Of a DNA stretch of 64,000 nt, positions 283 through 17,751 are shown piece by piece. The notes beneath the pieces are model-generated. The model saw only the letters and a program-made list of their open reading frames with translations, searched no databases and had not been told where the DNA came from. This DNA comes from Candidatus Aminicenantes bacterium (lineage in GTDB: Bacteria > Acidobacteriota > Aminicenantia > Aminicenantales > JAFGAV01). Every line of letters starts with the position of its first letter. Within the stretch, counting starts at the first letter, position 1. The translations under genes were made by a program, and so were the position numbers. The stretch spans positions 3,629-67,628 of the forward strand of contig JAFGAV010000063.1 in NCBI GenBank assembly GCA_016933515.1. Reading direction: 5' to 3'.

Positions 283-312
283 TTGACACGGTCCGGCGCG
301 TAGAAATAAAAT
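283..312 (+). promoter_or_regulatory. candidate sigma-70-type promoter for the hdr-nuo-mvh operon
   Basis: TTGACA (283-288), 18-nt spacer, TAAAAT (307-312). It lies about 235 nt upstream of the hdrC ATG, in the only AT-rich patch of this intergenic region. Confidence 0.35.
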
Positions 313-546: not shown

Positions 547-1128
547 ATGGACATCCAGCGTAAAGTCAAATACGAACATGAGCTGGACCCCGGGTTCTTG
601 GCCAAGATCAAGCGCCTCTCTCACTGCGAAGAAATCGACCGCTGCATCCAGTGCGGGACCTGCAGCAGCTCCTGCCCCATGTCCGTTTACATGGACCACC
701 CTCCCCGCCAGATCATCGGCTTCATCAAGAACGGGTATCGGGAGGAGGCCCTGAGCAGCTTCACCGTTTGGCTCTGTTCCTCCTGTTACACCTGCCAGGT
801 CCGCTGCCCGGCCAAAATCAAGATCACCGACGTCATGTACGCCCTCAAGCGCGAGGCCATCGAGAACAAAATCTATCCCCACCGCTTCTCCATCCCCCTG
901 CTGGATAAAGAAATGACCAAGCTCATCGCCCGCGACGGCCGCAATTCCGAGATGCGGCTGATCCTCAGGCTTTATCTCAAGTCTTTCAAGCCGTTCAATC
1001 TTCTCAAGATGACGCCCCTCGGTTTGAAGCTCATGAAAACGGGCCGCATGAGCCTGAAGAGAAACCGCATCAAGGGACGCAAACAGCTTCGGGCGCTCGT
1101 CAAGGCCATCAAGGAGAACGGCAAATGA
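547..1128 (+). CDS. hdrC: heterodisulfide reductase subunit C-like (2x[4Fe-4S])
   Basis: ATG 547 follows AAGGAGG (536-542). Two CxxCxxCxxxCP motifs (CIQCGTCSSSCP, CSSCYTCQVRCP). ATGA overlap with the next gene. Confidence 0.85.
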   Translation: MDIQRKVKYEHELDPGFLAKIKRLSHCEEIDRCIQCGTCSSSCPMSVYMDHPPRQIIGFIKNGYREEALSSFTVWLCSSCYTCQVRCPAKIKITDVMYALKREAIENKIYPHRFSIPLLDKEMTKLIARDGRNSEMRLILRLYLKSFKPFNLLKMTPLGLKLMKTGRMSLKRNRIKGRKQLRALVKAIKENGK

Positions 1129-2012
1129 AAGATTATGCCTATTTCCCCGGCTGCTCCCTGAAGGAAAATTCCAAGCATTACGAGGAATCCATCCTGCCGG
1201 TGTTCAAGGCGATCGGCCATCCCTTGGAGGAGCTCGAAGACTGGAACTGCTGCGGCGCGACGGCCTATTTTTCGGTCGACAACGACATGGCCGCGGCCGT
1301 CTGCGGACGCAACCTTTCCCTGGCTGAGAAACAGGGCAAGGACATCCTGGCCCCCTGCGCCGGATGCTACCTGACCCTGAAAAAATCCAACCTCTTTCTC
1401 CAGAGCGGGGCGCCGGAAGCCAAAAAAATCCTGGGCGACCTCAAGCGTTCCGGATGCGAATACCAGGGCCGGTCCGTGGTCAAGCACCCGCTCGAGGTCC
1501 TGGTCAGGGAGATCGGACTCGACGTCATCCGGAAAAAAGTCGTCCGGAAACTCACCGGCCTCAAGGTCGCCTGTTACTACGGCTGCCAGGTCGTCCGGCC
1601 TTACACCGATTTCGACGACCCCGACCACCCGACGTCCCTCGACGCCCTGATGGAAGCCCTGGGCGCCGAGCCCGTGGATTATTCGGCCAAGACCCGATGT
1701 TGCGGGGGGCTTTTGACCGGAACGATCGAGAACGTCGGCCTCAGGCTGAACCATCTTCTTCTCAAGGAGGCCAAACGCAAGGGAGCGGATGTCATCGTGA
1801 CCGTCTGTCCCTTGTGTCTCTTCAACCTGGAGCTTTTCCAGGACAAAATCATCAAGACTTATAAAGAGGACGTCCGCATCCCCATCTTGTTTTTCAGCCA
1901 GCTCATGGGGTTGGCCTTGGGATTGTCCCGGGACGACCTCGGATTTTCCCGCTCCACAATCCCTCTGGATGCCTTCTGGGCCAAGATTCGGAACGGAGGA
2001 CAAAATGTCTGA
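1125..2012 (+). CDS. hdrB: heterodisulfide reductase subunit B-like (two CCG domains)
   Basis: 295 aa with two CCG-type cysteine motifs (DWNCCGATAYF and KTRCCGGLLTG). Translationally coupled to hdrC and to the following hdrA fragment. Confidence 0.85.
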   Translation: MKDYAYFPGCSLKENSKHYEESILPVFKAIGHPLEELEDWNCCGATAYFSVDNDMAAAVCGRNLSLAEKQGKDILAPCAGCYLTLKKSNLFLQSGAPEAKKILGDLKRSGCEYQGRSVVKHPLEVLVREIGLDVIRKKVVRKLTGLKVACYYGCQVVRPYTDFDDPDHPTSLDALMEALGAEPVDYSAKTRCCGGLLTGTIENVGLRLNHLLLKEAKRKGADVIVTVCPLCLFNLELFQDKIIKTYKEDVRIPILFFSQLMGLALGLSRDDLGFSRSTIPLDAFWAKIRNGGQNV

Positions 2013-2862
2013 GAACGGCAATCCGAGAATCGGAGTCTTTGTCTGTCATTGCGGCACCAACATCGCCGGGAAGGTCAACGTCCCCGAGGTCGTGGAGTTC
2101 GCCTCCCACTTGGACTCCGTGGTCGTGGCCAAGGAATACAAATTCATGTGCTCCGATCCCGGGCAGGAACTGATCAAACAGAGCATCAAGGATCACGGCC
2201 TGAACAGGGTGGTGGTGGCCTCCTGCTCCCCGCTGATGCATGAGCCCACGTTCCGCGGAGTGACCGCCTCCGGAGGCCTCAATCCCTTCTTTTTCCAAAT
2301 GTCCAACATCCGGGAACACGTCTCCTGGGTCACGGAAGACCCCGAGCAGGCCACCAAGAAAGCCAAAGCCCTGATTTCCGCCGCCGTCCGCCGCGTGGCT
2401 CTCCACGAGCCGCTGCTGAAAAAGGAGGTCCCCGTCCGCCCCGAGGTGCTGATCATCGGCGGAGGCATCGCCGGCATCCATGCCGCTCTGACTTATGCCA
2501 ACTCGGGCAAGAAGGTTTATCTCGTGGAGAAGGAGCCCTCGATCGGCGGACACATGGCCCAATTGGACAAGACCTTCCCCACCCTGGACTGCTCGGCCTG
2601 CATCTTGACCCCCAAGATGAGTGAAGTGGGCAAGCACCCGAACATCACGCTTCTGACCATGAGCCGGGTCGAGGAGATCTCGGGCTTCGTGGGAAATTTC
2701 AAGATCAAAATGCGCAAAAAGGCCCGCTTCGTGGACACGGCCAAATGCAACGGCTGCGGCGCCTGCTGGGAAAACTGCCCGACGACCGTGACTCCGGCGG
2801 AAAGAATCATCCGCAAAGGCAAGATGATCATCAAAACGGTGGAAAAACCCCGCCCCAATTGA
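2005..2862 (+). CDS. hdrA: HdrA-like flavoprotein, N-terminal half only
   Basis: ATG 2005 follows GGAGGA (1995-2000). Motifs: IGVFVCHCGTNIAG, VVVASCSP, FAD fold VLIIGGGIAGIHAAL, FPTLDCSACILTPKM, and a single ferredoxin motif CNGCGACWENCP. Stop at 2860-2862. Confidence 0.8.
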   Translation: MSENGNPRIGVFVCHCGTNIAGKVNVPEVVEFASHLDSVVVAKEYKFMCSDPGQELIKQSIKDHGLNRVVVASCSPLMHEPTFRGVTASGGLNPFFFQMSNIREHVSWVTEDPEQATKKAKALISAAVRRVALHEPLLKKEVPVRPEVLIIGGGIAGIHAALTYANSGKKVYLVEKEPSIGGHMAQLDKTFPTLDCSACILTPKMSEVGKHPNITLLTMSRVEEISGFVGNFKIKMRKKARFVDTAKCNGCGACWENCPTTVTPAERIIRKGKMIIKTVEKPRPN

Positions 2863-2863: not shown

Positions 2864-3682
2864 ATGACCTTGAGAGACGCGTGCGACATCCTTCAGGCCG
2901 ACATCCTCACCGGAGAGGAGCATCTTGACCGGGAAGTGAAAATCGTGGGCGCTTCGGACCTGATGAGCGACGTTTTGGCCTTCGGCCAGCCCGGTCTGCT
3001 CCTGCTGACCGGACTGGCCAACGTCCAGGCCGTCCGCACGGCGGACATCATCGAAGCGGGCGGTGTGATCTTCGTCCGGGGGAAACGTCCCGACCAGGAC
3101 AGCGTGGACCTGGCGCGCCGGAACGGGCTGCCCCTCATGGCCACGAGCCTGATGATGTTTCCCGCCTGCGGCCGCCTCTACGAAAAAGGGCTTCACGGCG
3201 TGACGAAAACCGTCTCCTCCGCCCGGACGTCTTCCGTTTCGGAAGAACTCCTGACCCGGACCTTCGAGATCGCGGGCGGAGACTTCAGCAAAGCCGGGCA
3301 CGTCTCCATGGAAATCAAGGACATTCTCCAGGAACTGGGCATCTCTTCCGATCTCATCCGCCGCACGGCCATCGCCGCCTATGAGGCGGAGATGAACATC
3401 GTCATGTACGCCGCCCGGGGAACGCTGCGCCTTGATCTTTCCCCCCAGGCCCTCGTGATCGAGGTTGCCGACGAGGGGCCCGGAATCCCCGACATCGATA
3501 AGGCCATGACCGAGGGCTTCTCCACGGCCACACCCGAGATGCGTGAAATGGGCTTCGGCGCCGGGATGGGCCTGCCGAACATCAAGAGGAATTCCGACGA
3601 TTTCTCGATCCGATCGACGGTCGGCCGGGGAACGGATCTGCGTCTGAGCTTCCGCTTGAACAAAGGAACGGCCGAGGAATGA
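2864..3682 (+). CDS. DRTGG domain fused to an anti-sigma-factor-type Ser kinase / HATPase domain
   Basis: N-terminal part: VGASDLMSDVLAFGQPGLLLLTGLANVQAVRTA (DRTGG-like). C-terminal part: EVADEGPGIPDIDKAM...GFGAGMGLPNIKRNSD (GHKL ATPase N/G boxes). This protein type accompanies HydABC-type operons. Confidence 0.75.
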   Translation: MTLRDACDILQADILTGEEHLDREVKIVGASDLMSDVLAFGQPGLLLLTGLANVQAVRTADIIEAGGVIFVRGKRPDQDSVDLARRNGLPLMATSLMMFPACGRLYEKGLHGVTKTVSSARTSSVSEELLTRTFEIAGGDFSKAGHVSMEIKDILQELGISSDLIRRTAIAAYEAEMNIVMYAARGTLRLDLSPQALVIEVADEGPGIPDIDKAMTEGFSTATPEMREMGFGAGMGLPNIKRNSDDFSIRSTVGRGTDLRLSFRLNKGTAEE

Positions 3683-5031
3683 ACCAGTATCTGCATTCCA
3701 TCCGCGTCGATCCCGATCGCTGCAAGGGTCTGATGAAGTGCATGCATCGCTGCCCCACCCAGGCCATCCGCGTCCGGAACCGAAAGGCCGTTATCCTCGA
3801 CGAGAAATGCGTCGACTGCGGCGAATGCATCAACGCCTGCCCCAACGGGGCCATCGTGCCCTTGACGAATCCCATCGGCGATCTTTCGAAGTTCCGGCGC
3901 ACGGTCGCCATCCCTTCGCCGGCCCTCTACGCCCAATTCGGGCGGGACATCTTTCCCGACCGGATCCTGAGCGGTCTGAAAAAGCTCGGTTTCGACGACG
4001 TCCACGACCTGGCTCAGACCTGCGGGGAGGTCAGCTTCGCCATCCAGGAGTTTCTCAAGGACTACCACGGGCCGAAACCCCTCATTTCCAACACCTGTCC
4101 GGTCATCATCCGTCTTCTTCAAGTCCGTTATCCCAACCTCATCGATCAGATCCTGCCCATTGAAGCCCCGCGGGAGCTGGCCGCCCGGGAGATCAAGCGA
4201 AGCCTCGCGGAACGGTACGGCCTTCCGGAACGGGACATCGGCGCCTTTTATCTGACGCCCTGCCCGGTCAAGATGGTATCCATCATGCAGCCCGCCGAAA
4301 AGGGACGGTCCTTCCTGGACGGCGCGATCTCCATCACGGACATTTACCGGCCTCTTTTGACCTCCATGGATCCTTCGCCCCGGGAAAGCGGCCATCGGAG
4401 CCTGGAGAACCTCTGCATTCTGGGCCTCGGCTGGGCGATCGTGGGCGGGATCAGCCGCACTCTCAGACTCAGAAACTCCCTCTCCGTTTCCAGCCTGAGC
4501 GAAGTCGTGAGGGTGTTCGACGACATCGAACGGGGCAAACTGACCGACATCGATTTCATCGAAGCCTATTCCTGCCCCCAGGGCTGCGTCGGAGGCTCAT
4601 TGAACGTGGAGAACATCTATTCCTCTTACAACAAGATCCTCAAGATCATCGAAACGCTGGAGTTCGAAAAAATCCGGGCCTGTCCCGACATTCGCAAGGT
4701 CCGCCGAAAATACTCCGAGAACTTCTTCTCGCTCGAAGGCACCGTCGAGCCCCGGCCGCCCAAGCCGCTTCATCCCGATCTGTCGGAAGCCATCAGAAAA
4801 TTGAAGGAAAGGGACGAAATCCATCGTCGGCTGCCGAAAATCGACTGCGGCGCCTGCGGCGCGCCGACCTGTCTCGCTTTCGCCGAGGACGTCGTCCGCG
4901 GCGAAGCGAAGCTCGAGGACTGCCCCGTCCGGGAGGCGGAGCGTCTCCGTGCCGGCGGTCCGAAAAAAGACGAGCCCGAGGGGCCCGGCCTCAACAGCCG
5001 GACCGAGAACACCACGCGAGGATCATCATGA
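3679..5031 (+). CDS. [FeFe]-hydrogenase-like H-cluster-domain protein with N-terminal 2x[4Fe-4S] and C-terminal FeS (CX2CX4C...C) domain; putative sensor, not a catalytic HydA
   Basis: CVDCGECINACP ferredoxin motif. Degenerate H-cluster motifs SNTC140P, TPC195PVK198, SC299PQGC303VGG. C-terminal CGACGAPTC...DCP. ATGA overlaps at both ends. Confidence 0.75.
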   Translation: MNQYLHSIRVDPDRCKGLMKCMHRCPTQAIRVRNRKAVILDEKCVDCGECINACPNGAIVPLTNPIGDLSKFRRTVAIPSPALYAQFGRDIFPDRILSGLKKLGFDDVHDLAQTCGEVSFAIQEFLKDYHGPKPLISNTCPVIIRLLQVRYPNLIDQILPIEAPRELAAREIKRSLAERYGLPERDIGAFYLTPCPVKMVSIMQPAEKGRSFLDGAISITDIYRPLLTSMDPSPRESGHRSLENLCILGLGWAIVGGISRTLRLRNSLSVSSLSEVVRVFDDIERGKLTDIDFIEAYSCPQGCVGGSLNVENIYSSYNKILKIIETLEFEKIRACPDIRKVRRKYSENFFSLEGTVEPRPPKPLHPDLSEAIRKLKERDEIHRRLPKIDCGACGAPTCLAFAEDVVRGEAKLEDCPVREAERLRAGGPKKDEPEGPGLNSRTENTTRGSS

Positions 5032-5372
5032 CCGTTGAAGAAATCGCCCGTTCCCTCGACTTGACCGTTCTCAGCGGCGGGCCGAGGCTGTCCCAACCGG
5101 TCGCCGGAGGCTACGCCAGCGACCTGCTGAGCGACGTCATGGCCAACAGCCGGGAGGGGGATATCTGGATCACGCTTCAGACCCACCAGAACATCATCGC
5201 CGTGGCCAAACTCAAGAACCTGTCGGCCGTCGTTCTGGTCAATTCCCGGACGCCCGATCCCGAGACGCTTCAGAAGGCCGAGCAGGAAGGCATCGTTCTG
5301 TGCCGGACGGCCGATCCGGCTTTTGTCTTCTCGGGCAGGCTCTACGAGCTGCTCGGGAGGGGCAAAGGATAA
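5028..5372 (+). CDS. DRTGG domain protein
   Basis: 114 aa: GGYASDLLSDVMANSREGDIWITLQTHQNIIAVA..., paralogous to the N-terminal half of 2864-3682. Confidence 0.65.
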   Translation: MTVEEIARSLDLTVLSGGPRLSQPVAGGYASDLLSDVMANSREGDIWITLQTHQNIIAVAKLKNLSAVVLVNSRTPDPETLQKAEQEGIVLCRTADPAFVFSGRLYELLGRGKG

Positions 5373-5374
5373 GG

Positions 5375-6106: not shown

Positions 6107-6663
6107 AAGGACGCATGGAAGACTTGTCGCTGCACATTCTCGACGTCGCGGAGAACTCGGTGCGGGCCGGGGCCGGCACGGTTGCCATCCGCGTCGAGGA
6201 AGACAGCCGCGGCGATGTCCTTTCTCTCGAAATCGAGGACGACGGCGAGGGCATGGATGAAACGACGAAGAAAAAGATCCTGGATCCTTTCTTCACCACC
6301 CGGACGACGCGGCGGATCGGCCTGGGCCTGCCGCTCCTGGCCGAGGCGGCCCGGGCGGCCGAAGGGCGCCTGTCCGTCGATTCCGCCCCGGGAAAAGGAA
6401 CGCGCGTCACGGCCGTCTTCCGCCGCAGCCATATCGACCGCAAGCCGCTGGGCGACATCGTCCAAACCCTGGTGGCTCTTATCCTGGGCCATCCCGGAAC
6501 GCATTTCGTCTACCGGCAGGCCGTCGACGGGCGGACCTTCCTTTTCGACACACGGACGCTGCGTGTCGAGTTGGAAGACGCGCCGCTCGACTCTCCGTCA
6601 GCCATCTCCCTCATCCGAAAAAGACTGCAGGAAGGCCTGGCTTCCCTAAGGAGGACAACATGA
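6103..6663 (+). CDS. GHKL/HATPase-domain protein (histidine-kinase-like ATPase, no HisKA)
   Basis: LHILDVAENSVRAGA...LEIEDDGEGMD...DPFFTTR...IGLGLPLL...GKGTRV (N, G1, G2 boxes). ATGA overlaps on both sides. Confidence 0.7.
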   Translation: MKGRMEDLSLHILDVAENSVRAGAGTVAIRVEEDSRGDVLSLEIEDDGEGMDETTKKKILDPFFTTRTTRRIGLGLPLLAEAARAAEGRLSVDSAPGKGTRVTAVFRRSHIDRKPLGDIVQTLVALILGHPGTHFVYRQAVDGRTFLFDTRTLRVELEDAPLDSPSAISLIRKRLQEGLASLRRTT

Positions 6664-7115
6664 GCAACAGCAAGGTCATGGAAATTCTCGGCCGGTACGA
6701 GTCCGACCCGGGCGCCATCATCTCCATTCTCCAGGATGTTCAGGAAGCCTATCGCTACCTCCCCCGCGACGTCCTGGCCGACGTCTCCCGGGAGATCAAT
6801 ATCCCCCTGAGCCGCATTCTCAGCCTGGCCACCTTTTACAAGGCCTTCAGCCTGAAACCCAAGGGCAGGCACGCCTTTCATGTCTGTCTGGGCACCGCCT
6901 GCCACGTCCGCGGCGCTCAGCTCGTTCTGGAGAAGCTCGAGCGGGAATTGGGCATCTCCGCCGGCGAGACGTCCGAGGACCTGGCGTACAGTCTGGACGC
7001 CGTCCGCTGCGTGGGATGCTGCGGACTGGCGCCGGTCGTCATGGTCGGGGAGGAAGTCCACGGCAAAATCACCCAGACCAAAGTCTCCGGCCTCGTGAAA
7101 AAATATTCTAGATAG
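6660..7115 (+). CDS. NuoE/HydC-type [2Fe-2S] subunit of NADH-linked flavoprotein module
   Basis: AIISILQDVQEAYRYLP...HVCLGTACHVRG...VRCVGCCGLAPV is the classic NuoE thioredoxin-like 2Fe-2S pattern. Confidence 0.9.
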   Translation: MSNSKVMEILGRYESDPGAIISILQDVQEAYRYLPRDVLADVSREINIPLSRILSLATFYKAFSLKPKGRHAFHVCLGTACHVRGAQLVLEKLERELGISAGETSEDLAYSLDAVRCVGCCGLAPVVMVGEEVHGKITQTKVSGLVKKYSR

Positions 7116-7126: not shown

Positions 7127-7525
7127 ATGCCGAAACTCACCCTGGAAGAACTGGCGAAAGTGCGGGAGCAGGCGCGAAAGAAAACCCATCTCCGCGAGGG
7201 CGGAGAGGTCCGGGCCAAGGTGACGGTCCATATGGGAACGTGCGGCATCGCGGCCGGCGCGCGGACCATCATGAGCACTCTGCTGTCCGAGATCGAGAGC
7301 CGGGACGTCCGCGACGTCCAGGTGACGAACTCGGGATGCGCGGGGCTGTGCAGCCGGGAGCCGATGATCACCGTGGAGCTGGCCGGCGAGGCGCCGGTCA
7401 AATACGTGGACCTCAATCCGGACAAGATGAAAACCATCTTCGCAGAGCATGTCCTCGGCGGGAAGATCGTCGCGAAATACGCCCTGGGCATCGGCAGCGA
7501 AAAAACGGACTTTCCCAAGGAGTGA
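7127..7525 (+). CDS. small thioredoxin-like (2Fe-2S) ferredoxin (HydD-like)
   Basis: VTVHMGTCGIAAGA...SGCAGLCSREPM; 132 aa; located between the nuoE-like and nuoF-like genes. Confidence 0.8.
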   Translation: MPKLTLEELAKVREQARKKTHLREGGEVRAKVTVHMGTCGIAAGARTIMSTLLSEIESRDVRDVQVTNSGCAGLCSREPMITVELAGEAPVKYVDLNPDKMKTIFAEHVLGGKIVAKYALGIGSEKTDFPKE

Positions 7526-7528: not shown

Positions 7529-9361
7529 ATGCCCGAAAAACACGCGGAGACGGCCCATCGTCTCCATCTCATGGTCTGCGCCGGGACGGCCTGCGTCTCC
7601 AATCATTCCTTCGCCATCAAGGACGCCCTGGAGAAAGAGATCCGGAAACACGGCCTGGAGAACGAAGTCCTGGTCGTCACCACGGGCTGCAACGGGTTCT
7701 GTGAGCGCGGCCCCCTTCTCGTCGTCCAGCCGGGGAACATCTTTTACCAGCAGCTCACCGTCAAGGACATCCCGCATCTCGTGGAAGAGCACTTTCTCAA
7801 GGGACGACCGGTCAGCCGGCTGATGTACACGCCGCCCAAGGAGAAAAAACCCGTTCCGGTCCTGAGCGACATCGATTTTTTCAAGAAACAGGTGCTCATC
7901 GCTCTTAGAAACAGAGGCCTGATCGACCCCGAAAAAATCGAGGAGAGCATCGCCCGGGACGGCTACAAAGCCATGGCCAAAGCCCTGACGGAAATGACGC
8001 CCGCCCAGATCATTATGGAGATCAAACAGTCCGGGCTGCGGGGACGAGGCGGAGCGGGCTTTCCCACCGGCTTGAAATGGGAGATGGTCCGCAACGCCGT
8101 GAGCACGAACGGCGGGGGCAAGTACCTGATTTGCAACGGCGACGAGGGCGACCCGGGCGCGTTCATGGATCGAAGCATCCTGGAGGCCGACCCCCATTCC
8201 GTCATCGAAGGCATGGTCATCGGCGCCAAGGCCGTGGGCGCCACCGAGGGCGTGCTCTACGTCCGGAACGAATACCCGCTGGCCGTCAAAAGGCTCCAAA
8301 TCGCACTCGCCCAGGCCCGAGAGTACGGCCTGCTGGGCGAGGACATCCTGGGCACGAAGTTCAGCTTCGACATCAAGGTCCACCGGGGCGCCGGCGCTTT
8401 CGTCTGCGGCGAGGAGACCGCTCTCATCGCCTCGATCGAGGGCCGGCTGGGCGAACCCCGGCCCCGTCCCCCCTACCCGGCCCAGAGCGGCCTCTACGGC
8501 CGGCCGACGCTCATCAATAACGTCGAGACCTGGGCCAACGTGCCCGTGATCATCGACCGGGGATCTTCCTGGTTCTCCTCGATCGGCACGGAGACGAGCA
8601 AGGGCACCAAAGTCTTCTCCCTCGTGGGCAAGATCAACAACACCGGCCTGGTCGAAGTGCCCATGGGCATCACCCTGCGGGAGATCATCTACGACATCGG
8701 CGGGGGCATCCCCGGCGGGAAGGCCTTCAAAGCCGTTCAGACGGGCGGACCCTCGGGAGGCTGCATCCCCGCGGACATGATCGACTTGCCGATCGATTAC
8801 GAGAGCCTGAGCCAGGCCGGATCGATGATGGGCTCGGGCGGCATGGTCGTCATGGACGAGGACACCTGCATGGTGGACGTGGCCCGTTATTTCCTGTCCT
8901 TCACCAAGGACGAGTCCTGCGGCAAATGCACGCCCTGTCGCGAAGGCACAAAGATCATGTTCGACATCCTGACGCGGATCTGCGAAGGCCGGGGAACGGA
9001 AGCGGACCTGGAGCTCCTGGAAAGCCTGGCCCCTTCGATCAAAGACTCGGCGCTCTGCGGCCTGGGCAAAACCGCGCCCAATCCCGTCCTCACCACGCTG
9101 CGCTATTTCCGCTCCGAGTATGAGGCCCACATCCGGGACAAGAAATGTCCGGCTCACGTGTGCCGGCAGCTCAACACCTACACCATCGACGAAAAGATCT
9201 GCCTCGAAGCCGGACATGGATGCGATGTCTGCCGCCGCAATTGCGCTTCCGACGCCATCCGGGGCGAGAAAAACACGGCTCACTCCATCAACCAGGACAA
9301 GTGCATCAAATGCGGCGTATGTCTCGACGTCTGCAAATTCCACGCCGTCAAGGTCGAATAG
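7529..9361 (+). CDS. NuoF/HydB-type FMN/NAD(H)-binding subunit with extra N-terminal 2Fe-2S and C-terminal 2x[4Fe-4S] domains
   Basis: LRGRGGAGFPTGLKW and NGDEGDPGAF (NADH/FMN motifs); ESCGKCTPCREG (N3 cluster). N-terminal MVCAGTACVS...GCNGFCERGP. C-terminal CDVCRRNCASDAI and CIKCGVCLDVC. Confidence 0.9.
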   Translation: MPEKHAETAHRLHLMVCAGTACVSNHSFAIKDALEKEIRKHGLENEVLVVTTGCNGFCERGPLLVVQPGNIFYQQLTVKDIPHLVEEHFLKGRPVSRLMYTPPKEKKPVPVLSDIDFFKKQVLIALRNRGLIDPEKIEESIARDGYKAMAKALTEMTPAQIIMEIKQSGLRGRGGAGFPTGLKWEMVRNAVSTNGGGKYLICNGDEGDPGAFMDRSILEADPHSVIEGMVIGAKAVGATEGVLYVRNEYPLAVKRLQIALAQAREYGLLGEDILGTKFSFDIKVHRGAGAFVCGEETALIASIEGRLGEPRPRPPYPAQSGLYGRPTLINNVETWANVPVIIDRGSSWFSSIGTETSKGTKVFSLVGKINNTGLVEVPMGITLREIIYDIGGGIPGGKAFKAVQTGGPSGGCIPADMIDLPIDYESLSQAGSMMGSGGMVVMDEDTCMVDVARYFLSFTKDESCGKCTPCREGTKIMFDILTRICEGRGTEADLELLESLAPSIKDSALCGLGKTAPNPVLTTLRYFRSEYEAHIRDKKCPAHVCRQLNTYTIDEKICLEAGHGCDVCRRNCASDAIRGEKNTAHSINQDKCIKCGVCLDVCKFHAVKVE

Positions 9362-9373: not shown

Positions 9374-11131
9374 ATGATCACCCTGAGCATAGACGGAAAA
9401 CCGATCCAGGTCGAGGAAGGCACGACCCTCCTCGAAGCCGCCCGCAAGCTGGACATTCCCATTCCGACGCTCTGCCATCATCGGGTCATCGAACCCTACG
9501 CCGCGTGCCGGGTGTGCCTGGTCGAGGTCTCGCTCAAAGGGAGGACGGATCTTGTCCCCTCCTGCAACACCAAGGCCGTCGAGGGCATGGAGGTCCGGAC
9601 CCAGTCGCCCCGCGCCCTCAACGCCAGAAAAATGAACGTCGAGATGCTCCTGGCTAGGGCGCCGGCCGCCGAGCCGGTGCGGGAGATCGCCCGCTCGCTG
9701 GGCATCACCGAAACGCGCTTCGAGGTCAAAGAGCCGACAAGGAAGTGCATCCTGTGCGGCCTGTGCGTCCGGGCCTGCGAGGACATCGTCGGCGCCAACG
9801 CCATCAGCTTTCTCGAGCGCGGTGCGGAACGGAGGGTGTCCACTCCTTTCGACGAACCGTCCGAGGCTTGCATCGGCTGCGCGGCCTGCGCCTTTTTCTG
9901 TCCCACGGGAGCCATCACCGTCGAGGATCTGCGGGGCCGCAAAGTCCTCCACGACGAGTTCACCCTCGGACCCTCGACAGCCATCCGCATCCCCACCCGG
10001 CAGGCCGTCCCCATGGTGCCCTTCATCGACGAGGACGCCTGCATTCACTTCAAAACGGGGAAATGCGGCGTCTGCGCCAAGGTGTGCGACCGGGAAGCGG
10101 TCAATCACGAGATGCAGGACGAGATCATCGAGTTCGAGGTGGGCTCGATCATCGTCGCCTCGGGCTTCAAATCCTTCGACGCCCGGAGGATCCCGGCCTA
10201 CGGCTACGGACGCTATCCCAACGTCCTCACCGCCGAAGAGTTCGAGCGGATGGTCAACGCCTCGGGCCCCACGGGCGGGAAGATCAAGCTGACCGACGGC
10301 CGCGAGCCGCAGGCCGTGGGCATCGTCCACTGCGTCGGCTCGCGCGACGTCAACTTCAACGAGTACTGCTCCCGAGTGTGCTGCATGTATTCCCTGAAAT
10401 TTGCGCATCTCATCAAGGAAAAAACGAACGCGGCGATCTACGACTTCTACATCGACATGCGCACCTACGGCAAAGGCTACGAGGAATTCTACCACCGGCT
10501 CCTCGAGGAGGGGACTCACTTCATCCGCGGCCGCGTGTCGGAGATCACGGACATGGCGACGACGGACGCCGAAGAAGGAAAACTCATCATCCGGGTCGAG
10601 GACACGCTTCTCGGGTCGGTGCGGCGCATCCCCGTGGACATGGTCGTCTTGGCCACGGGGCTCGAGCCGAGCCTGGACCACAACCTCCTGGCGAAGACGC
10701 TCGGCATCTCCTGCAGCCAGGACGCGTTTTTCCTTGAGCGCCATCCCAAGCTCGCCCCCTTGGCCACCTATTCCGACGGGATTTTCCTGGCCGGCACCTG
10801 CCAGGCGCCCCGCGACATTCCCGATACGGTCGCCCAGGCCGGGGGCGCGGCGGCCGAGGCCCTGGCCCTGGCCGACAAGGGAACGTTCGCCCTGGAGCCC
10901 ATCACCGCCGTGATCGACAAGGACATCTGCGCCGGCTGCCAGATCTGCGTCGGCCTGTGCCCGTTTACGGCCATCACCTTCGACAAGGAGCAGGGCGTTT
11001 CCGTCATCAACGACGCGCTGTGCAAGGGTTGCGGAACCTGCGTGGCGGCCTGCCCGAGCGGCGCGGCCCAACAGAAGCATTTTCGCGACACGCAGATTTT
11101 CGCCGAGATCGAGGGGATTTTCCTGGCATGA
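9374..11131 (+). CDS. hdrA: fusion protein: NuoG/HydA-like N-terminal [2Fe-2S]+2x[4Fe-4S] module joined to the C-terminal two-thirds of HdrA
   Basis: C34/C45xxC48/C64 2Fe-2S pattern; CILCGLCVRAC; CIGCAACAFFCP. HdrA-collinear sequence follows: CIHFKTGKCGVCAKVC, IIVASGF, VHCVGSRD, YCSRVCCMYSLK, FLAGTCQAPRDIP, CAGCQICVGLCP, CKGCGTCVAACP. Confidence 0.8.
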   Translation: MITLSIDGKPIQVEEGTTLLEAARKLDIPIPTLCHHRVIEPYAACRVCLVEVSLKGRTDLVPSCNTKAVEGMEVRTQSPRALNARKMNVEMLLARAPAAEPVREIARSLGITETRFEVKEPTRKCILCGLCVRACEDIVGANAISFLERGAERRVSTPFDEPSEACIGCAACAFFCPTGAITVEDLRGRKVLHDEFTLGPSTAIRIPTRQAVPMVPFIDEDACIHFKTGKCGVCAKVCDREAVNHEMQDEIIEFEVGSIIVASGFKSFDARRIPAYGYGRYPNVLTAEEFERMVNASGPTGGKIKLTDGREPQAVGIVHCVGSRDVNFNEYCSRVCCMYSLKFAHLIKEKTNAAIYDFYIDMRTYGKGYEEFYHRLLEEGTHFIRGRVSEITDMATTDAEEGKLIIRVEDTLLGSVRRIPVDMVVLATGLEPSLDHNLLAKTLGISCSQDAFFLERHPKLAPLATYSDGIFLAGTCQAPRDIPDTVAQAGGAAAEALALADKGTFALEPITAVIDKDICAGCQICVGLCPFTAITFDKEQGVSVINDALCKGCGTCVAACPSGAAQQKHFRDTQIFAEIEGIFLA

Positions 11132-11238: not shown

Positions 11239-11679
11239 ATGCAGGAAGAACCGTTTGAGCCCAATCTGGTCGGGTTTTTGTGCACCTGGTGCTCCTACAC
11301 CGGGGCCGATTTTGCGGGGACGGCCCGCATGACCTATGCGCCCAACGTGAAGATCATCCGCGTGATGTGCAGCGGCCGTGTGGATCCCCAATTCGTGCTC
11401 AAGGCGTTCCGGGAGGGCGCCGACGGAGTTCTCATCTCGGGCTGCCACCCGGGCGACTGCCATTATAAAGAAGGGAACTATCGGACCCTGCGCCGATACC
11501 GGCTCCTGATCCGAGTGCTGGAACAGATGGGGATCGAGCCCGCAAGGCTCCGGCTGGAATGGGTCTCGGCCGCCGAAGGCGCTAGGTTTCAACGGGTCTG
11601 CAACGAATTCACGGAACAGATCCGGGCCCTGGGACCTCTCAGCCTGAATGGAGGAAAACATGAGCAACACCAAGCCTAA
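11239..11679 (+). CDS. mvhD: MvhD-like (methyl-viologen-reducing hydrogenase delta subunit) [2Fe-2S] protein
   Basis: ATG 11239 follows GAGGAG (11225-11230). FLCTWCSYTGADFAG...IRVMCSGRVDP...ADGVLISGCHPGDCHY is the MvhD/FlpD signature. Confidence 0.85.
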   Translation: MQEEPFEPNLVGFLCTWCSYTGADFAGTARMTYAPNVKIIRVMCSGRVDPQFVLKAFREGADGVLISGCHPGDCHYKEGNYRTLRRYRLLIRVLEQMGIEPARLRLEWVSAAEGARFQRVCNEFTEQIRALGPLSLNGGKHEQHQA

Positions 11680-12640
11680 GGTCGCCTTTTACTGGTGCGC
11701 CTCCTGCGGGGGGTGCGAGGAGTCGATCATCGACCTGGCCGAGGACATCCTCAAGGTCGCGGCGGCGGTGGACATCGTGTTCTGGCCCGTGGCCCTGGAT
11801 TTCAAGAGGAAAGACGTCGAGGCCATGGAAGACGGTTCGATCGCCGCGAGTTTCATCAACGGCGCCGTCCGCAACAGCGAACAGGAGGACATGGTCAAGC
11901 TCCTCCGCCGCAAGTCCCGGATCGTCGTGGCCCACGGCTCGTGCTCCCACTTGGGCGGCATCCCCGGCCTGGCCAACTTCTGGGACAAGGAGACGATCTT
12001 CAGGCGGGCCTACCTGACCACGCCTTCGACCGACAATCCCCAGGGAGTCGTGCCCCTGGAAAAAAGCGCGGTCGACGGCTGCGAGCTCGAGCTGCCCCGT
12101 TTCTACGACACCGTTTTCTCACTGGACCAGGTGATCGACGTGGATTATTACCTTCCCGGCTGCGCCCCCCCGCGGGATCTCATCCTGAGCGCCTTTCAGG
12201 CCCTCCTGGAGGGCACTCTCCCGCCCAAGGGCTCGGTCCTATCGCCCAACAAGTCCGAGTGCGACGAGTGCGACCGCAACGACACGAAGCCGGAGAAGCT
12301 CGAGATCAAGGAGGTCAAGCGCCCCTGGGAGGTTCACCTCGACCCTGAAGTCTGCTTCCTCGCCCAGGGCGTGATCTGCATGGGCCCGGCCACCCGGGCG
12401 GGGTGCGGACAGCGCTGCATTTCGGCCAACATGCCCTGCCGCGGCTGTTTCGGTCCCACGGACCAGGTCTACGACCAGGGAGCCAAGTTCCTCTCGGCCT
12501 TCGCTTCGATCCTGGCCACCGACGACGAAAAGGAAATCGAGAACATCGTCCAGACCATCGTCGACCCGGCGGGCACGTTCTACCGGTTCAGCCTGCCGAG
12601 CAGCATCCTCAGGCGAAAGAGATTGGAGGCGGTCAAATGA
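11660..12640 (+). CDS. mvhG: [NiFe] hydrogenase small subunit, cytoplasmic group-3c (MvhG)-like
   Basis: KVAFYWCASCGGCEESIID is the proximal-cluster motif, and there is no Tat signal. The start is either ATG 11660 (GGAGGA at 11650-11655) or ATG 11648. ATGA overlap with the large subunit. Confidence 0.85.
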   Translation: MSNTKPKVAFYWCASCGGCEESIIDLAEDILKVAAAVDIVFWPVALDFKRKDVEAMEDGSIAASFINGAVRNSEQEDMVKLLRRKSRIVVAHGSCSHLGGIPGLANFWDKETIFRRAYLTTPSTDNPQGVVPLEKSAVDGCELELPRFYDTVFSLDQVIDVDYYLPGCAPPRDLILSAFQALLEGTLPPKGSVLSPNKSECDECDRNDTKPEKLEIKEVKRPWEVHLDPEVCFLAQGVICMGPATRAGCGQRCISANMPCRGCFGPTDQVYDQGAKFLSAFASILATDDEKEIENIVQTIVDPAGTFYRFSLPSSILRRKRLEAVK

Positions 12641-14106
12641 CGACCCGCGGCAAGAAAATCACCATCGACCCCATCACCCGGCTGGAGGGGCACGGCAAGA
12701 TCGAAATCTTTCTCGACGACAAGGGGGACGTCCACCGGGCCATCCTCCAGATTCCGGAGCTCCGGGGCTTCGAGCAGTTCGCCGTCGGCCGGCCCGTTGA
12801 AGAAATGCCCCGCATCACCCCCCGCATCTGCGGCGTCTGTCCCACGGCCCACCATATGGCCGCCACCAAGACCGTGGACGCCGTCTTCCATGTCGAGCCC
12901 ACGCCCGCCGGCCGCATGATCCGGGAACTCATCTACAACACCTTCATGTTCGAGGACCACACGCTCCACTTTTTCTTCCTCGGCGGTCCGGACTTCGTCG
13001 TCGGCCCCACCGCGCCGAAAGGCGAGCGGAACATCCTGGGCGTCATCGGCAAGGTCGGGTTGGAAATCGGCGGCCGGGTCATCAAGGCCCGCCGCGAAAC
13101 CCGGGACATCATCAATCACCTGGGCGGCAAAATCATCCATCCCGTGTGCGGCCTGCCGGGCGGCGTTTCCAAGGGGCTGGACGAGGAGCACCGGCTGAAG
13201 TTCCTCGAGGTGGCCAAAAACACCGTGGAGTTCGCCCAATTCGCCCTCACCATCTTCGACGACGTCGTCTTAAAGAACAAGCAGTACGTCGACCTTGTTC
13301 TGAGCGACGCCTTCACCATCAAGACGCATTACATGGGGCTCGTGGACGAAAAGAACAGGGTCAATTTCTACGACGGCGATCTCCGCGTCGTCACTCCCGA
13401 GGGCAAGGAATTCGTCAAATTCAAGCCCGACCGGTATCTGGACGTCATCGCCGAGCACGTCGAGCCGTGGACGTACATCAAATTTCCGTTCCTGAAAAAG
13501 ATCGGCTGGAAGGGGTTTCAGGACGGTCCGGACAGCGGGGTTTTCCGCGTGGCTCCCCTGGCTCGGCTCAACGCCTCGGACGGCATGGCCACCCCGAGAG
13601 CTCAGGCCGAATACGAGAAGATGTACTCCGTCCTGGGCGGAAAGCCCGTCCACAACACGCTCGCCTTCCACTGGGCCCGCCTGATCGAGGCGCTCCAGGC
13701 GGCCGAGGCCATGGTCGGCCTGCTCGAGGACAAGGCCATCACCGACCCCAACATCCGCAACATCCCCACCGCCGTTCCGGACGAGGGCGTGGGCATCGTC
13801 GAGGCTCCCCGCGGCGTCCTCATCCACCACTACAAGACCGATCCGCGGGGAATCGTCACCGAGGCCAACCTCATCGTGGCCACGGTGAACAACGCCGCGG
13901 CCATCAACATGTCCATCGAAAAGGCGGCTAGAGCGTTCATCAAGGGAGGAAAAATCGACGACGGCCTGCTCAACATGGCCGAGATGGGATTCCGCCCTTA
14001 CGACCCCTGCCACGCCTGCGGCACACACGCCCTGGGCGGGGAGGCCCCTCTGGTCGTCGACGTGTTCGACAAGGACGGCAACCTCGTCCGCCGACTGACG
14101 CGCTGA
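12637..14106 (+). CDS. mvhA: [NiFe] hydrogenase large subunit, group-3c (MvhA)-like
   Basis: Internal ATG 12637 overlaps the small-subunit stop. ITRLEGHG; N-terminal RICGVCPTAHH; C-terminal DPCHACGTH followed by a 25-aa cleavable extension. The upstream 78 codons of the track ORF are rejected. Confidence 0.9.
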   Translation: MTTRGKKITIDPITRLEGHGKIEIFLDDKGDVHRAILQIPELRGFEQFAVGRPVEEMPRITPRICGVCPTAHHMAATKTVDAVFHVEPTPAGRMIRELIYNTFMFEDHTLHFFFLGGPDFVVGPTAPKGERNILGVIGKVGLEIGGRVIKARRETRDIINHLGGKIIHPVCGLPGGVSKGLDEEHRLKFLEVAKNTVEFAQFALTIFDDVVLKNKQYVDLVLSDAFTIKTHYMGLVDEKNRVNFYDGDLRVVTPEGKEFVKFKPDRYLDVIAEHVEPWTYIKFPFLKKIGWKGFQDGPDSGVFRVAPLARLNASDGMATPRAQAEYEKMYSVLGGKPVHNTLAFHWARLIEALQAAEAMVGLLEDKAITDPNIRNIPTAVPDEGVGIVEAPRGVLIHHYKTDPRGIVTEANLIVATVNNAAAINMSIEKAARAFIKGGKIDDGLLNMAEMGFRPYDPCHACGTHALGGEAPLVVDVFDKDGNLVRRLTR

Positions 14107-14294: not shown

Positions 14295-16273
14295 ATGACA
14301 TTTCAGACCCTGTCTTTGAGGAGAAAACTCCTCTTCACCTTCGTGGCCGTCATCGTCATCGGGGGACTGGCCTCCCTTCTCGTCGGCTCCCGGCTGGTGC
14401 GGGAAACGCTCATCAGCCAGGCTCAGAGCAAGGTCCGGCACGACCTTTCGGCGGCCCGCATGGTCTTCGACGAAAAGCTCAAAGACATCCGGGACCTTAT
14501 CGGCGTCACCGCCGCCCGGGAAGGCCTTCGGGAAGCCGTTTCCTCGGGCCGGGTCGACACCCTGCATCGATATCTCAACCGGGTCAGGATGGATTCCGGC
14601 CTGGACACGCTCAACGTCACCGACAACGCGGGCCGGATTTTGGTGAGAACGCGGCGCCCCGAAGCCCCGTCCGATGACCTGTCCTCGGACGATCTGGTGC
14701 GCCGGGCCCTTCGGGGAGGGCTCCACTCCGGAGTCCAGATCATCTCCCGCGAGGAGCTTCTCCGGGAAGGAGAGGATCTGGCCGTCCGGGCCCGCATAAA
14801 CATCCTGCCCACGCCCCGAGCCGCCGATCAGGCGAAGACCGTGGAGACGAGCGGCATGATGCTCCGCGCCGCGGCGGCCCTTCAAGGCGAGGACGGACGG
14901 ATACTGGGGGCGCTCTGCGGCGGGATCCTCATCAATCGCAACTACGAGATCGTGGACCGCGTCAAGGAGCTCGTCTACAAGGGAGAAAGATACAAGGGCC
15001 GGGAGATCGGAACGGCGACGATTTTCCAGAACGACCTCCGCATTTCGACCAACGTCCGCAACCGGAACGGCGATCGGGCGGTGGGCACGCGCGTTTCCCG
15101 TCAAGTGAGGGAAGCGGTGCTTGTCCGCGGCCGGCCCTGGATCGATCGCGCCTTCGTGGTCAACGATTGGTATATCACCGCCTACGAGCCCCTCCGGAAC
15201 CCGGAGGGGGACATCATCGGCGTCCTCTACGTGGGCCTGCTTGAAAAACCTTACCTCGACACCGCAGCCCGCGTCATGTCGGCTTTCATCCTTTTGGCCG
15301 GATTGTGCGTCCTGTTCCTTCTTCTCATGCTGTTCCTCATCACCGGCCGGATCACAAAGCCCCTGAGGAACATCGCCGTGGCGACCCAGGAAATCGCCCG
15401 CGGCGACCTCTCCCACCGCGTGAAAGTGGAGTCGCGCGACGAGGTCGGCCGCCTGGCCGATTCCTTCAACCGCATGACCGACAACCTTGAGAAGGCGAAC
15501 GAGTCGCTCCTCGAATGGACCCGGACCCTGGAGAAACGCGTCGAGGAGCGCACTCGGGAACTGCAGGAAGCCCAGGCCGGGCTCGTCCAGTCGGAGAAAC
15601 TGGCCTCTCTGGGAAAGCTGGCGGCCGGCATCGCACACGAAATCAACAATCCTCTGGGCGGCATCCTGATCTACAGTCATCTGACGCTGGAGGACACCCC
15701 CCAGGACAGCCCGGCCTACGAAAATTTGAGGAAGATCGTCAAGGAAACGACGCGCTGCAAGAACATCGTCCGGGGCCTTCTGGAATTCGCCCGGCCCAAA
15801 GACCCGGAAATGATCCTGACTTCCGTTGCCGACATTATTGAAAAAGCGCTGGCCCTCCTGGAACGGCAGACCCTGTTTCAAAACATCGTCATTCGCAAGG
15901 ACTTTGCGCCCCTGCCTCGGCTTGTGGTCGACGTCGCCCAGCTGCAGCAGGTGTTCATGAACATCATCATCAACGCCGCGGAAGCGATGGCCGGCCGCGG
16001 CACGCTCACCATCCGGGCCGCGGCCGACAAGAAGGCCGGATGGCTGAGCGTGGAGTTCATCGACACCGGACACGGGATCAAGCCCGAGGATCGGGAGCGG
16101 CTGTTCGATCCCTTTTTCACGACCAAGGAGGTCGGGAGAGGGACGGGCCTGGGACTGTCCATCAGCTACAGCATCATCAAAAAGCACAGCGGCAAAATTC
16201 TGGTCCGCAACGAGCAGGGGGGAGGGGCCGTCTTCTCCGTCCTTCTGCCTTTGAACAGAGCGAAGGTCGAAGA

Positions 16274-16277
<4 letters not shown>
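14295..16277 (+). CDS. sensor histidine kinase (TM - large extracytoplasmic Cache-like domain - TM - HAMP - HisKA - HATPase)
   Basis: Two hydrophobic segments flank about 300 aa. HAMP: ITKPLRNIAVATQEIARGDLSHRV. H-box: AAGIAHEINNPL. N/G boxes: NIIINAAEAM, DTGHGI, GTGLGLSISY. Confidence 0.9.
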
Positions 16278-17653
<1,376 letters not shown>

Positions 17654-17712: not shown

Positions 17713-17751
17713 AATGCGCATTCAATTTTTTTGGTTTTTTTCACTTGCCTC

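Follow-up and report, generated by a model that had tools for sequence, protein, structure and literature searches.

We analysed a 64,000-nucleotide stretch of a Candidatus Aminicenantes genome (contig JAFGAV010000063.1; hereafter, the window), and in particular a gene that joins an iron-sulfur module of the BfuA/HydA/NuoG type to a large part of HdrA, the flavoprotein of heterodisulfide reductase (Hdr). This gene, which we refer to as the fusion, lies in a forward-strand cluster with the order hdrC-hdrB-hdrA_N-[5 regulatory genes]-nuoE-fdx-nuoF-fusion-mvhD-mvhG-mvhA. From hdrC through the fusion, adjacent genes either overlap by 4 to 8 nt, as hdrB and hdrC do (4 nt), or are separated by no more than 12 nt, and a consensus scan of the + strand gave no terminator signal above background between the genes of the operon. 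Judged by gene order and homology, a Bfu (NuoEFG-like) cassette sits within the hdrA gene of an hdrCBA-mvhDGA operon, and HdrA is therefore predicted to be made as two polypeptides.

The open reading frame (ORF) of the fusion (9374-11131, + strand) is uninterrupted throughout, encodes 585 amino acids (aa), and follows a GGAGG ribosome-binding site located 8 nt upstream of the start. The protein contains 30 cysteines, 28 of which fall into recognizable cluster-binding sets, and every motif listed in a preliminary description of the gene is present. Residues 1-190 form a short BfuA/HydA/NuoG-type Fe-S wire, and residues ~192-585 correspond to HdrA residues ~264-650. In the wire, C34, C45xxC48, and C64 are the ligands of the [2Fe-2S] cluster A1, and C125/128/131/135 (motif CILCGLCVRAC, at residue 125) and C166/169/172/176 (the last BfuA motif, CIGCAACAFFCP, residues 166-177) are those of the [4Fe-4S] clusters A2 and A4. 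The remainder of the protein (HdrA_C) holds motif 2 of the ferredoxin domain that is inserted in HdrA (C223-x7-C231-x2-C234-x3-C238, nt 10040-10087), the rest of the flavin adenine dinucleotide (FAD)-binding, thioredoxin-reductase-like fold, in which C320/332/336/337 are the [4Fe-4S] cysteines, and, at the C-terminus, a 2x[4Fe-4S] ferredoxin domain (C519-C560). Motifs CIHFKTGKCGVCAKVC, VHCVGSRD, YCSRVCCMYSLK, and FLAGTCQAPRDIP are found at residues 223, 318, 331, and 471.

Several lines of evidence identify the N-terminal module. Pfam places a Fer2_4 [2Fe-2S] domain at residues 1-78 (E 2e-20) along with several 4Fe-4S dicluster domains, and the NCBIfam profile FeFe_hydrog_A6, which describes the N-terminus of NADH-dependent [FeFe] hydrogenase A6, covers residues 2-185 (E 8.6e-41). 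HoxU (E 3.6e-36) and NuoG profiles match as well, the latter fitting only the first ~100-190 residues with scores far below their cut-offs; the His-ligated N5 domain and the molybdopterin-oxidoreductase-like C-terminal domain that characterize NuoG are missing from the fusion. WorA, from the complex of a tungsten aldehyde oxidoreductase with Bfu, aligns without gaps (9mqx_A residues 6-191 with fusion residues 3-189; E 2.2e-37), while HydA1 of a bifurcating hydrogenase (8a6t_A) aligns in two pieces that skip the region of the His-ligated cluster. WorA is without cluster A3, and the electrons of its partner enter at A4 (PMC12318220). The cofactor set A1, A2, and A4 defines Type 2 BfuA subunits, and the His-ligated A3 belongs to Bfu Types 1 and 3 but not to Type 2 (PMC9304861). 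Because the fusion has no cysteine between residues 64 and 125 and thus no site for A3, no Pfam match to the His-ligated NuoG cluster domain (PF10588), and an alignment to HydA1 that skips this region, its BfuA part is best classified as Type-2-like rather than as carrying the full NuoG/HydA set. The NuoG/HydA-type wire proposed in the preliminary description is accordingly borne out by end-to-end alignment with BfuA, HydA, and NuoG N-termini, except for the His-ligated [4Fe-4S] cluster.

The second part of the protein is HdrA proper. Specifically, fusion residues 195-581 match positions 262-639 of the 777 in the NCBIfam HdrA2 profile (E 4.7e-130; 435 bits against a cut-off of 1100), and residues 164-583 match five HdrA chains among solved structures (E 1e-105 to 3e-119), the best being 8rvu_a (E 3e-119) and 5odc_A (E 2.7e-113, up to 5odc_A residue 650). 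The Pfam pyridine-nucleotide-disulfide oxidoreductase family gives only a sub-threshold match, and residues ~192-585 are not a generic member of that family. On these scores, the two homologies, BfuA-type at the N-terminus and HdrA at the C-terminus, are far beyond chance. Collinearity with HdrA, first placed at about residue 215, begins near residue 192 (HDEFTLGPS...) when the protein is aligned to intact HdrA. The suggestion that HdrA took the place of an H-cluster domain holds in so far as the fusion occupies the hydA position and Pfam finds no PF02906 match in the ORF, HdrA sequence being present there instead; the synteny fits equally well with a Bfu cassette placed within hdrA.

The complementary part of HdrA is encoded 6.5 kb upstream, in the ORF at 2005-2862 that had been put forward as the partner of the fusion. 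HdrA_N matches residues 3-263 of 5odc_A (E 1.1e-102) and HdrA2 positions 1-258 (E 5.9e-114), which makes it the exact complement; the HdrA2 profile is tiled without overlap by three genes, namely, hdrA_N (1-258), the fusion (262-639), and mvhD (644-774). The cysteines of HdrA_N lie at residues 14, 16, 49, 74, 196, 199, 248, 251, 254, and 258. The first four of these align with the N-terminal [4Fe-4S] site of 5odc_A, which is thus on a chain separate from the fusion, and a DCSxC pair includes C199, the equivalent of the Cys197 required for HdrA dimerization and for the partner's cluster. HdrA_N also carries the GGGIAG dinucleotide-binding motif for FAD, the fusion having no GxGxxG motif of its own, and motif 1 of the inserted ferredoxin domain (CxxCxxCxxxCP; CNGCGACWENCP; nt 2746-2781).

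To map the junction, both proteins were aligned with intact HdrA from metagenome-assembled genomes (MAGs) of Zixibacteria (L065) and Elusimicrobia (L042). HdrA_N tracks the intact protein through motif 1 and ends after a 26-residue tail. In the fusion, CIGCAACAFFCP is followed by ~15 residues, after which HdrA resumes (HDEFTLGPS..AIRIPTRQAVPMVPFIDEDAC, equivalent to intact SEFDEGLSKRKPVYIPFPQATPLVAVIDPETC) and runs into motif 2. Since HdrA_N stops past motif 1 and the fusion resumes ahead of motif 2, the break is assigned to the loop that connects the two cluster motifs in the inserted ferredoxin domain. The four CxxCxxCxxxC-type motifs, of which two are in BfuA, one in HdrA_N, and one in HdrA_C, correspond to four clusters, a count that fits two complete dicluster domains. 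With its two motifs on different chains, the inserted ferredoxin domain could form only if two polypeptides came together. Both HdrA_N and the fusion are likewise predicted to be needed for the FAD site, because the dinucleotide motif is in the former and the rest of the thioredoxin-reductase-like fold in the latter, so that the fold is not whole in either chain. We infer a rebuilt HdrA fold from the complementarity of the two pieces.

Table 1. Features of the operon, with positions in the window, and HdrA_N::NuoE genes at related loci
Feature	Position	Strand	Evidence and remarks
sigma-70-like promoter candidate 5' of hdrC	283..312	+	TTGACA-18-TAAAAT, 11/12 matches; consensus match only
hdrC (2x[4Fe-4S] subunit)	547..1128	+	Pfam Fer4_8/Fer4_17
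hdrB (two CCG domains, disulfide-reducing subunit)	1125..2012	+	Pfam CCG x2 E 4.9e-31; NCBIfam CoB_CoM_SS_B E 6.9e-61
hdrA_N (N-terminal 40% of HdrA)	2005..2862	+	alternative start 1969; 5odc_A, HdrA2 profile
regulatory gene 1: N-terminal domain + HATPase, anti-sigma/kinase-like	2864..3682	+	Pfam HATPase_c_2, HATPase_c; NCBIfam anti-sigma F-like
regulatory gene 2: [FeFe]-hydrogenase-like Fe-S protein	3679..5031	+	Pfam Fe_hyd_lg_C E 3.5e-22, PF04060, 2x Fer4
regulatory gene 3: small protein	5028-5372	+	
regulatory gene 4: PHP-domain protein	about 5300-6106	+	Pfam PHP/PHP_C
regulatory gene 5: HATPase_c protein	6103-6663	+	Pfam HATPase_c
bfuC / nuoE-hydC homologue ([2Fe-2S] C1)	6660..7115	+	Pfam 2Fe-2S_thioredx (PF01257) full length E 2.4e-47; NCBIfam HoxE/NuoE
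small thioredoxin-like [2Fe-2S] ferredoxin, HydD position	7127..7525	+	NCBIfam fdxn_Clost E 1.9e-10; weak Pfam match
bfuB / nuoF-hydB homologue (FMN, NAD(H) site, clusters B1-B5)	7529..9361	+	PDB and Pfam matches
BfuA module of fusion (residues 1-190)	9374..9943	+	A1 [2Fe-2S], A2 and A4 [4Fe-4S]
HdrA_C part of fusion (residues ~191-585)	9944..11131	+	8rvu_a, 5odc_A, HdrA2 profile matches
mvhD ([2Fe-2S] adaptor, hydrogenase to HdrA)	11239..11679	+	Pfam FlpD E 1e-54; NCBIfam VhuD E 2e-36; HdrA2 644-774
mvhG ([NiFe]-hydrogenase small subunit)	11648..12640	+	Pfam Oxidored_q6; NCBIfam VhuG E 1e-65
mvhA ([NiFe]-hydrogenase large subunit, Mvh/Vhu type)	12637..14106	+	NCBIfam VhuA E 6.8e-124
HdrA_N::NuoE (422-440 aa)	L070:6858-8129; L071:2794-4065; L073:8019-9302; L074:9001-10293		

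The genes that separate the halves of HdrA are predicted to encode a bifurcation-type module. The NuoF homologue (610 aa) consists of an N-terminal thioredoxin-like 2Fe-2S domain, a flavin mononucleotide (FMN) domain, the NuoF 4Fe-4S region, and a C-terminal dicluster (2x[4Fe-4S]). Its nine top PDB matches are all BfuB of structurally characterized Bfu-type complexes (E 1e-207 to 1.6e-260), among them 7t2r_B (E 1.6e-260), 7q4v_B (E 8e-255), 9mqx_B, and 7p5h_B; complex I NuoF and the beta subunit of non-bifurcating formate dehydrogenase come later, at about E 1e-120. The ligands of the B2 site (C447, C485, H534, C540, and C545) correspond to C438, C476, H525, C531, and C536 of A. mobile BfuB. 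The histidine at this site occurs in virtually all bifurcating BfuB sequences and is missing from non-bifurcating homologues (PMC9304861). By these marks, the NuoF and NuoE homologues are assigned as bifurcation-type BfuB and BfuC.

The outer genes of the operon supply the rest of an Mvh-Hdr system. MvhA retains the Ni-binding motifs RICGVCPTAH and DPCHACGTH, and together with the small subunit and MvhD it has the composition of a Mvh/Vhu-type (group 3c) [NiFe] hydrogenase. For hdrC, the NCBIfam profile CoB-CoM heterodisulfide reductase subunit C fits best, with a score under the curated cut-off (E 3e-22). Among the regulatory genes, ORF 3679-5031 was considered as a true hydrogenase standing in for HydA and was rejected: it has CPQGCVGG but is missing the H-cluster motifs L1 (TSCCP) and L2 (MPCxxK), and is unlikely to be a catalytic hydrogenase.

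The same architecture occurs elsewhere, as a database search found it conserved in Aminicenantes and in a wider family. An identical fusion protein has been deposited from a Candidatus Aminicenantes MAG, and the fusion is matched over its full length, with 74-100% identity, by more than 120 clusters (built at 90% identity), all of them 584-591 residues long. Scanning one genome per species, we recovered 39 loci with a full-length fusion, three of them on complete chromosomes and all from Aminicenantes or from MAGs of the same synteny. hdrC, hdrB, and hdrA_N lie upstream on the same strand at all loci with at least 9 kb of upstream DNA (33/33), and mvhDGA lies downstream at 29 of the 31 loci with enough downstream DNA. 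The regulatory block is present in 32 loci and missing in L011, L015, and L029, where hdrA_N directly precedes nuoE. Compared with the closest locus (L036), the ratio of nonsynonymous to synonymous substitution rates (dN/dS) is 0.10-0.21 for every gene; hdrA_N has 0.10, and the BfuA and HdrA_C parts of the fusion have 0.21 and 0.12, respectively. Furthermore, all 28 candidate ligand cysteines of the fusion, including the 12 in BfuA, are invariant among 51 homologues. The fusion is thus confirmed as a real, conserved chimera in an operon whose genes are under purifying selection.

Some of these loci vary around the shared core. Despite enough downstream DNA, L013 and L033 have no mvhDGA directly past the fusion, and L033 has a distant [NiFe] hydrogenase pair ~6 kb further on. 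Where the regulatory block is missing, as at L011, NuoF carries the small 2Fe-2S ferredoxin as a fused part (L011:8022-9989, 655 aa). The NuoF/BfuB homologue is ~1021 aa long in 12 of the 39 Aminicenantes loci (L003, L012, L014, L017, L018, L019, L023, L026, L031, L032, L035, and L038) and in the related L075, for example, at L003:6921-9986 and L075:96-1685. These long forms carry an NfnB/GltD-like module (Fer4_20 and Pyr_redox_2, residues 522-930) after the NuoF 4Fe-4S region, and the C-terminal dicluster of the window's BfuB (residues 549-610) has no match in them. With such an arrangement, the complex would gain an NADPH-type flavin site, which may take the place of the ferredoxin site. The operon also occurs in records titled 'uncultured Eubacteriales bacterium' (L001, L003, L006, L017, L018, L021-L024, L027, L031, L033, and L039), where protein identity is 72-78% and the synteny matches that of the Aminicenantes MAGs; the titles of these records are probably placeholders or wrong taxonomy.

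Beyond Aminicenantes, intact hdrA is found in the order hdrC-hdrB-hdrA-mvhD-mvhG-mvhA in outgroups that include Zixibacteria, Elusimicrobia, Desulfolinea, and several Chloroflexi. Both HdrA halves of the window are closest to this intact outgroup form: the HdrA_N core is 72% identical to intact HdrA of Zixibacteria versus 57% to the fused form of the L070 type, and for HdrA_C the values are 62% versus 44%. A search of 50%-identity representatives returned about a dozen further BfuA::HdrA_C clusters at 38-60% identity. At L075, a NuoF::GltD-like gene precedes the fusion, which is followed by MvhDGA. At L070, L071, L073, and L074, the order is hdrC-hdrB-[HdrA_N::NuoE]-NuoF-[BfuA::HdrA_C], such that the entire BfuC-BfuB-BfuA unit lies inside hdrA with in-frame fusions at both ends. 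Bacteria and archaea together contribute more than 120 clusters of HdrA_N::NuoE proteins, whose genes invariably adjoin NuoF and a BfuA::HdrA_C gene, with sources that include Thermoplasmata, Methanomassiliicoccales archaea, candidate division KSB1, Candidatus Brocadiae, and an [Eubacterium] cellulosolvens assembly. In the records they are labelled 'NADH:ubiquinone oxidoreductase subunit E' or 'NAD(P)H-dependent oxidoreductase subunit E'. The neighbours of these loci differ: Etf and acyl-CoA dehydrogenase genes at L070, an Etf subunit and a fused MvhD at L071, a second large HdrA-like protein at L073, and TusA/DsrE genes at L074. L070, L073, and L074 have Hdr and Bfu parts without a hydrogenase, and the family is therefore not uniform in its third partner.

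We also noted other rearrangements of HdrA. A Desulfobacterales HdrA of 1132 aa (L053:7712-11110) contains an NfnB/GltD-like insert (Fer4_20 and Pyr_redox_2, residues 285-681) that lies within the inserted ferredoxin domain, just past the first cysteine of motif 2 and ~35 residues beyond the break point in the window, and eleven more Desulfobacterota loci have an equal gap of ~1.5 kb between the halves of HdrA. The proteins P0122, P0125, P0272 (Candidatus Sumerlaeota), and P0273, of 1059-1101 aa, are tandem forms of the fusion: BfuA::HdrA_C leads into a second HdrA-like unit, which brings a new FAD motif and a ferredoxin domain.

A neighbour-joining tree of HdrA_C (305 columns), the deep nodes of which are weak, places the fused proteins of Aminicenantes and L075 in one clade (93% bootstrap) that is sister to intact HdrA of Zixibacteria and Elusimicrobia (96% for the joint clade) and apart from the other fused groups. 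A single origin of all fused forms gains no support from this tree. The insertion may have been repeated, or modules may have recombined, a conclusion that is only tentative because the deeper nodes are weak. The scatter of fused forms over the tree argues that the architecture has been selected for. As for the cassette itself, derivation from a hydrogenase operon is suggested by its gene order along with the hydrogenase-like and kinase-like regulatory genes.

Taken together, our results point to one composite redox complex in which the MvhAGD [NiFe] hydrogenase, HdrABC, and a Bfu NAD(H)/ferredoxin module would be combined, with the low-potential arm of HdrA wired into the Bfu core, an interpretation to which we assign a probability of about 0.6. 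In known enzymes, low-potential electrons leave HdrA for ferredoxin through its inserted ferredoxin domain (PMC9012536). Along with the N-terminal cluster and the dinucleotide fold for FAD, HdrA_N would bring the first half of this domain, and its assembly with the fusion would rebuild the FAD site and the two [4Fe-4S] clusters shared in that domain. Within the fusion, the inserted ferredoxin domain comes directly after the motif completing the A2/A4 dicluster, and the exit of HdrA would be extended covalently by BfuA clusters A4-A2-A1 to the FMN/Fe-S core of BfuBC. The earlier proposal that the FMN of NuoF is wired to the FAD of HdrA is supported as an interpretation, with the addition that the connection would run through the inserted ferredoxin domain, on the low-potential arm. 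With canonical polarity, H2 would be oxidized and its electrons bifurcated at the FAD, one passing via HdrC and HdrB to a disulfide and the second by way of the inserted ferredoxin domain, BfuA, and BfuBC to NAD+ and ferredoxin; the whole system could also run in reverse. Domain identities, the complementarity of the HdrA pieces, ligand conservation, synteny, and purifying selection are shown by the analysis; the physical assembly and its stoichiometry, the path from A4 to the inserted ferredoxin domain, the distances between clusters, the direction of flow, and the nature of the disulfide are inferred.

An argument can be made against such a complex on several grounds. Every Hdr and Mvh subunit scores below its NCBIfam equivalog cut-off. 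When the fusion was modelled alone with AlphaFold2 (51 homologues; mean predicted local distance difference test [pLDDT] score 61, predicted template modelling score [pTM] 0.40), only the BfuA part was confident, with residues 1-130 mostly at pLDDT 85-96, and HdrA_C was mostly below 50, which fits an incomplete fold but equally a shallow alignment. The sequence does not fix the direction of electron flow. Reduction of NAD+ from the low-potential arm would not need a second bifurcation, yet the bifurcation-competent BfuBC is complete. Finally, the inserted domain may be the point of electron entry rather than exit in some members of the family, as suggested by the fusion at L074 (497 aa), from which the C-terminal ferredoxin domain is seemingly missing. 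Were the NuoEF-like module a plain NADH dehydrogenase, electrons would pass from NADH through BfuA and the inserted domain to the FAD of HdrA and on to HdrBC, as an alternative to the H2/Mvh input and much like FlxABCD-HdrABC in function; no second bifurcation would be needed, because the step from NADH to a disulfide is downhill. This arrangement would suit the three relatives with Hdr and Bfu parts but no hydrogenase, including L074, where the inserted domain would be the sole input, and NuoEFG-like genes by hdrA/mvhD have been interpreted in this way before (PMC4046663). We nevertheless consider it unlikely for the window, where BfuB keeps all of the bifurcating marks (N-terminal 2Fe-2S, B2 His/Cys, and the C-terminal 2x[4Fe-4S] ferredoxin-interacting domain), and where electrons would enter by a domain that is the exit, not the entry, of canonical HdrA (PMC9012536).

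Less probable still is an H2-evolving, confurcating hydrogenase, in which electrons from NADH and reduced ferredoxin would merge at BfuBC and pass via BfuA and HdrA to MvhD, MvhG, and MvhA. Here MvhAGD and HdrA would replace the H-cluster domain of HydA, and thiol/disulfide chemistry at HdrBC would be a side branch or a regulator. The cassette does follow the order of tetrameric HydABCD-type operons (nuoE-fdx-nuoF-'hydA'), with the fusion in the hydA position and hydrogenase-like and kinase-like regulatory genes nearby, and electron exchange between a [NiFe] hydrogenase and BfuA has a precedent in NiFe-Bfu (7t2r). However, the low-potential arm of HdrA would have to serve as the way in for electrons and its normal entry route as the way out, and the regulatory block is dispensable, as the three loci that are without it attest. 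Moreover, full conservation of HdrB and HdrC, together with purifying selection on their genes, argues that the disulfide branch is not vestigial. A broken hdrA, whether through a recent insertion that left pseudogene halves or through a chimeric contig, with a functionless fusion in either case, is very improbable. Although the HdrA halves are 6.5 kb apart with a block of different apparent ancestry between them, and HdrA_C alone has no confident AlphaFold2 fold, the arrangement recurs at every long locus in different species-level genomes, three complete chromosomes included, and independent lineages share the break point and fuse both ends in frame. On this conserved layout, the intact frames, the evidence of selection on both halves, and the invariant cysteines, we reject a pseudogene or an assembly artefact. 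The composite Mvh-Hdr-Bfu complex remains our preferred interpretation. A broader proposal, on which we would put rather less than even odds, is that the operon represents the Mvh-linked member of a widespread enzyme class in which the HdrA FAD and the Bfu FMN/Fe-S core, bifurcation centres of differing mechanism, are hard-wired in series through insertion of the Bfu genes in hdrA, four couples (H2/H+, disulfide/thiol, NAD+/NADH, and ferredoxin) are balanced, and the architecture has arisen more than once.

Downstream of the operon, the window contains a second [NiFe] hydrogenase set (17731-22283) whose composition resembles that of a sulfhydrogenase, with a Fer4_22 protein, an FAD/NAD-binding protein that has a DHODB-type Fe-S domain, and small and large subunits. 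A Cache/HAMP histidine kinase and a sigma-54 activator (14295-17653) lie before this set, and response regulators and a CobW/HypB-type GTPase (22580-25850) come after it.

The component families of this system are known, including HdrABC-MvhAGD, Bfu with Type-2-like BfuA, the combination in Bam, and NfnB insertions in the same domain of HdrA. Full-text term searches, along with the Bfu classification paper and its supplement, a paper on the evolution of bifurcation, a survey of archaeal gene fusion and fission, and genome papers, yielded no published description of HdrA split by a multi-gene Bfu cassette with a BfuA::HdrA_C or HdrA_N::BfuC fusion; an earlier mention is possible. In the operon described here, gene fusion has apparently joined Hdr to Bfu at one defined place, where low-potential electrons leave HdrA. 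This would offer a concrete wiring diagram for tandem bifurcation, which was formerly proposed only for the Bam complex, where the modules are separate. The fused architecture is common but is masked by labels such as '(2Fe-2S)-binding protein', 'heterodisulfide reductase subunit A', and 'NAD(P)H-dependent oxidoreductase subunit E'. More generally, the case shows the inserted ferredoxin domain of HdrA to be a recurrent docking site for NAD(P)H-linked modules. Aminicenantes inhabit anoxic sediments and the subsurface (PMC6472368, PMC7509429), and a coupling of their H2, NADH, and ferredoxin pools would bear on hydrogen turnover in those habitats.

Compared with MvhAGD-HdrABC of methanogens (5ODC, 8RVU), the operon in the window has the same six subunit types, an identical gene order around the insertion, all of the HdrA domains and cluster cysteines including Cys197, and the Ni-binding motifs of MvhA. 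It differs in that HdrA is split in the inserted ferredoxin domain, with a Bfu module placed there, and in that the host is a bacterium without methanogenesis, for which reason CoM-S-S-CoB is not expected to be the disulfide. With the Type 2 Bfu complexes WorABCSL (9MQX) and NiFe-Bfu (7T2R), the window shares the complete cofactor set of BfuB and BfuC (PMC9304861; PMC12318220) and a separate catalytic module that would give or take electrons at A4; as in WorA, its BfuA has A1, A2, and A4 but no A3. Unlike in other members of the Bfu family, the module for the third substrate is itself a bifurcating flavoprotein, HdrA, covalently fused to BfuA, and term searches of the text of PMC9304861 and one supplement found no Bfu type that is fused to HdrA. 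In Bam-Bfu, the class II benzoyl-CoA reductase BamBCDEFGHI, BfuABC-like BamGHI and HdrA-like BamE belong to one complex for which two serial bifurcation steps have been proposed (PMC9304861). The Bam modules are, however, separate subunits with an unsplit HdrA, and their Bfu is proposed to be the donor to the HdrA FAD, whereas in the window Bfu would be on the low-potential arm, with the hydrogenase at the donor position.

Other systems also link NAD(P)H or a bound partner to HdrA. In HdrA 9-11 of ANME-1 and the large HdrA of Desulfobacterales, an NfnB-like insertion lies in the inserted ferredoxin domain (PMC9012536). As in the window, an NAD(P)H-linked flavoprotein module interrupts that domain, but there it is one domain in one chain rather than a multi-gene Bfu cassette of separate proteins. 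FlxABCD-HdrABC of sulfate reducers links NAD(H) to an HdrABC module. Its input module, FlxA-D, is unrelated to the NuoEF-like Bfu, and its HdrA is intact. A Flox-Hdr cluster is mentioned in PMC10327494. In Desulfotignum, NuoEFG-like genes beside hdrA/mvhD have been taken as NADH input modules (PMC4046663). Finally, in (Mvh-Hdr)2-Fmd4, the low-potential electrons of Hdr are reported to go to a bound partner and not to free ferredoxin (PMC13580544). The two systems would be alike in passing low-potential electrons to an attached partner, which is formylmethanofuran dehydrogenase held by protein contacts in the one and, in the window, a Bfu module joined by gene fusion.

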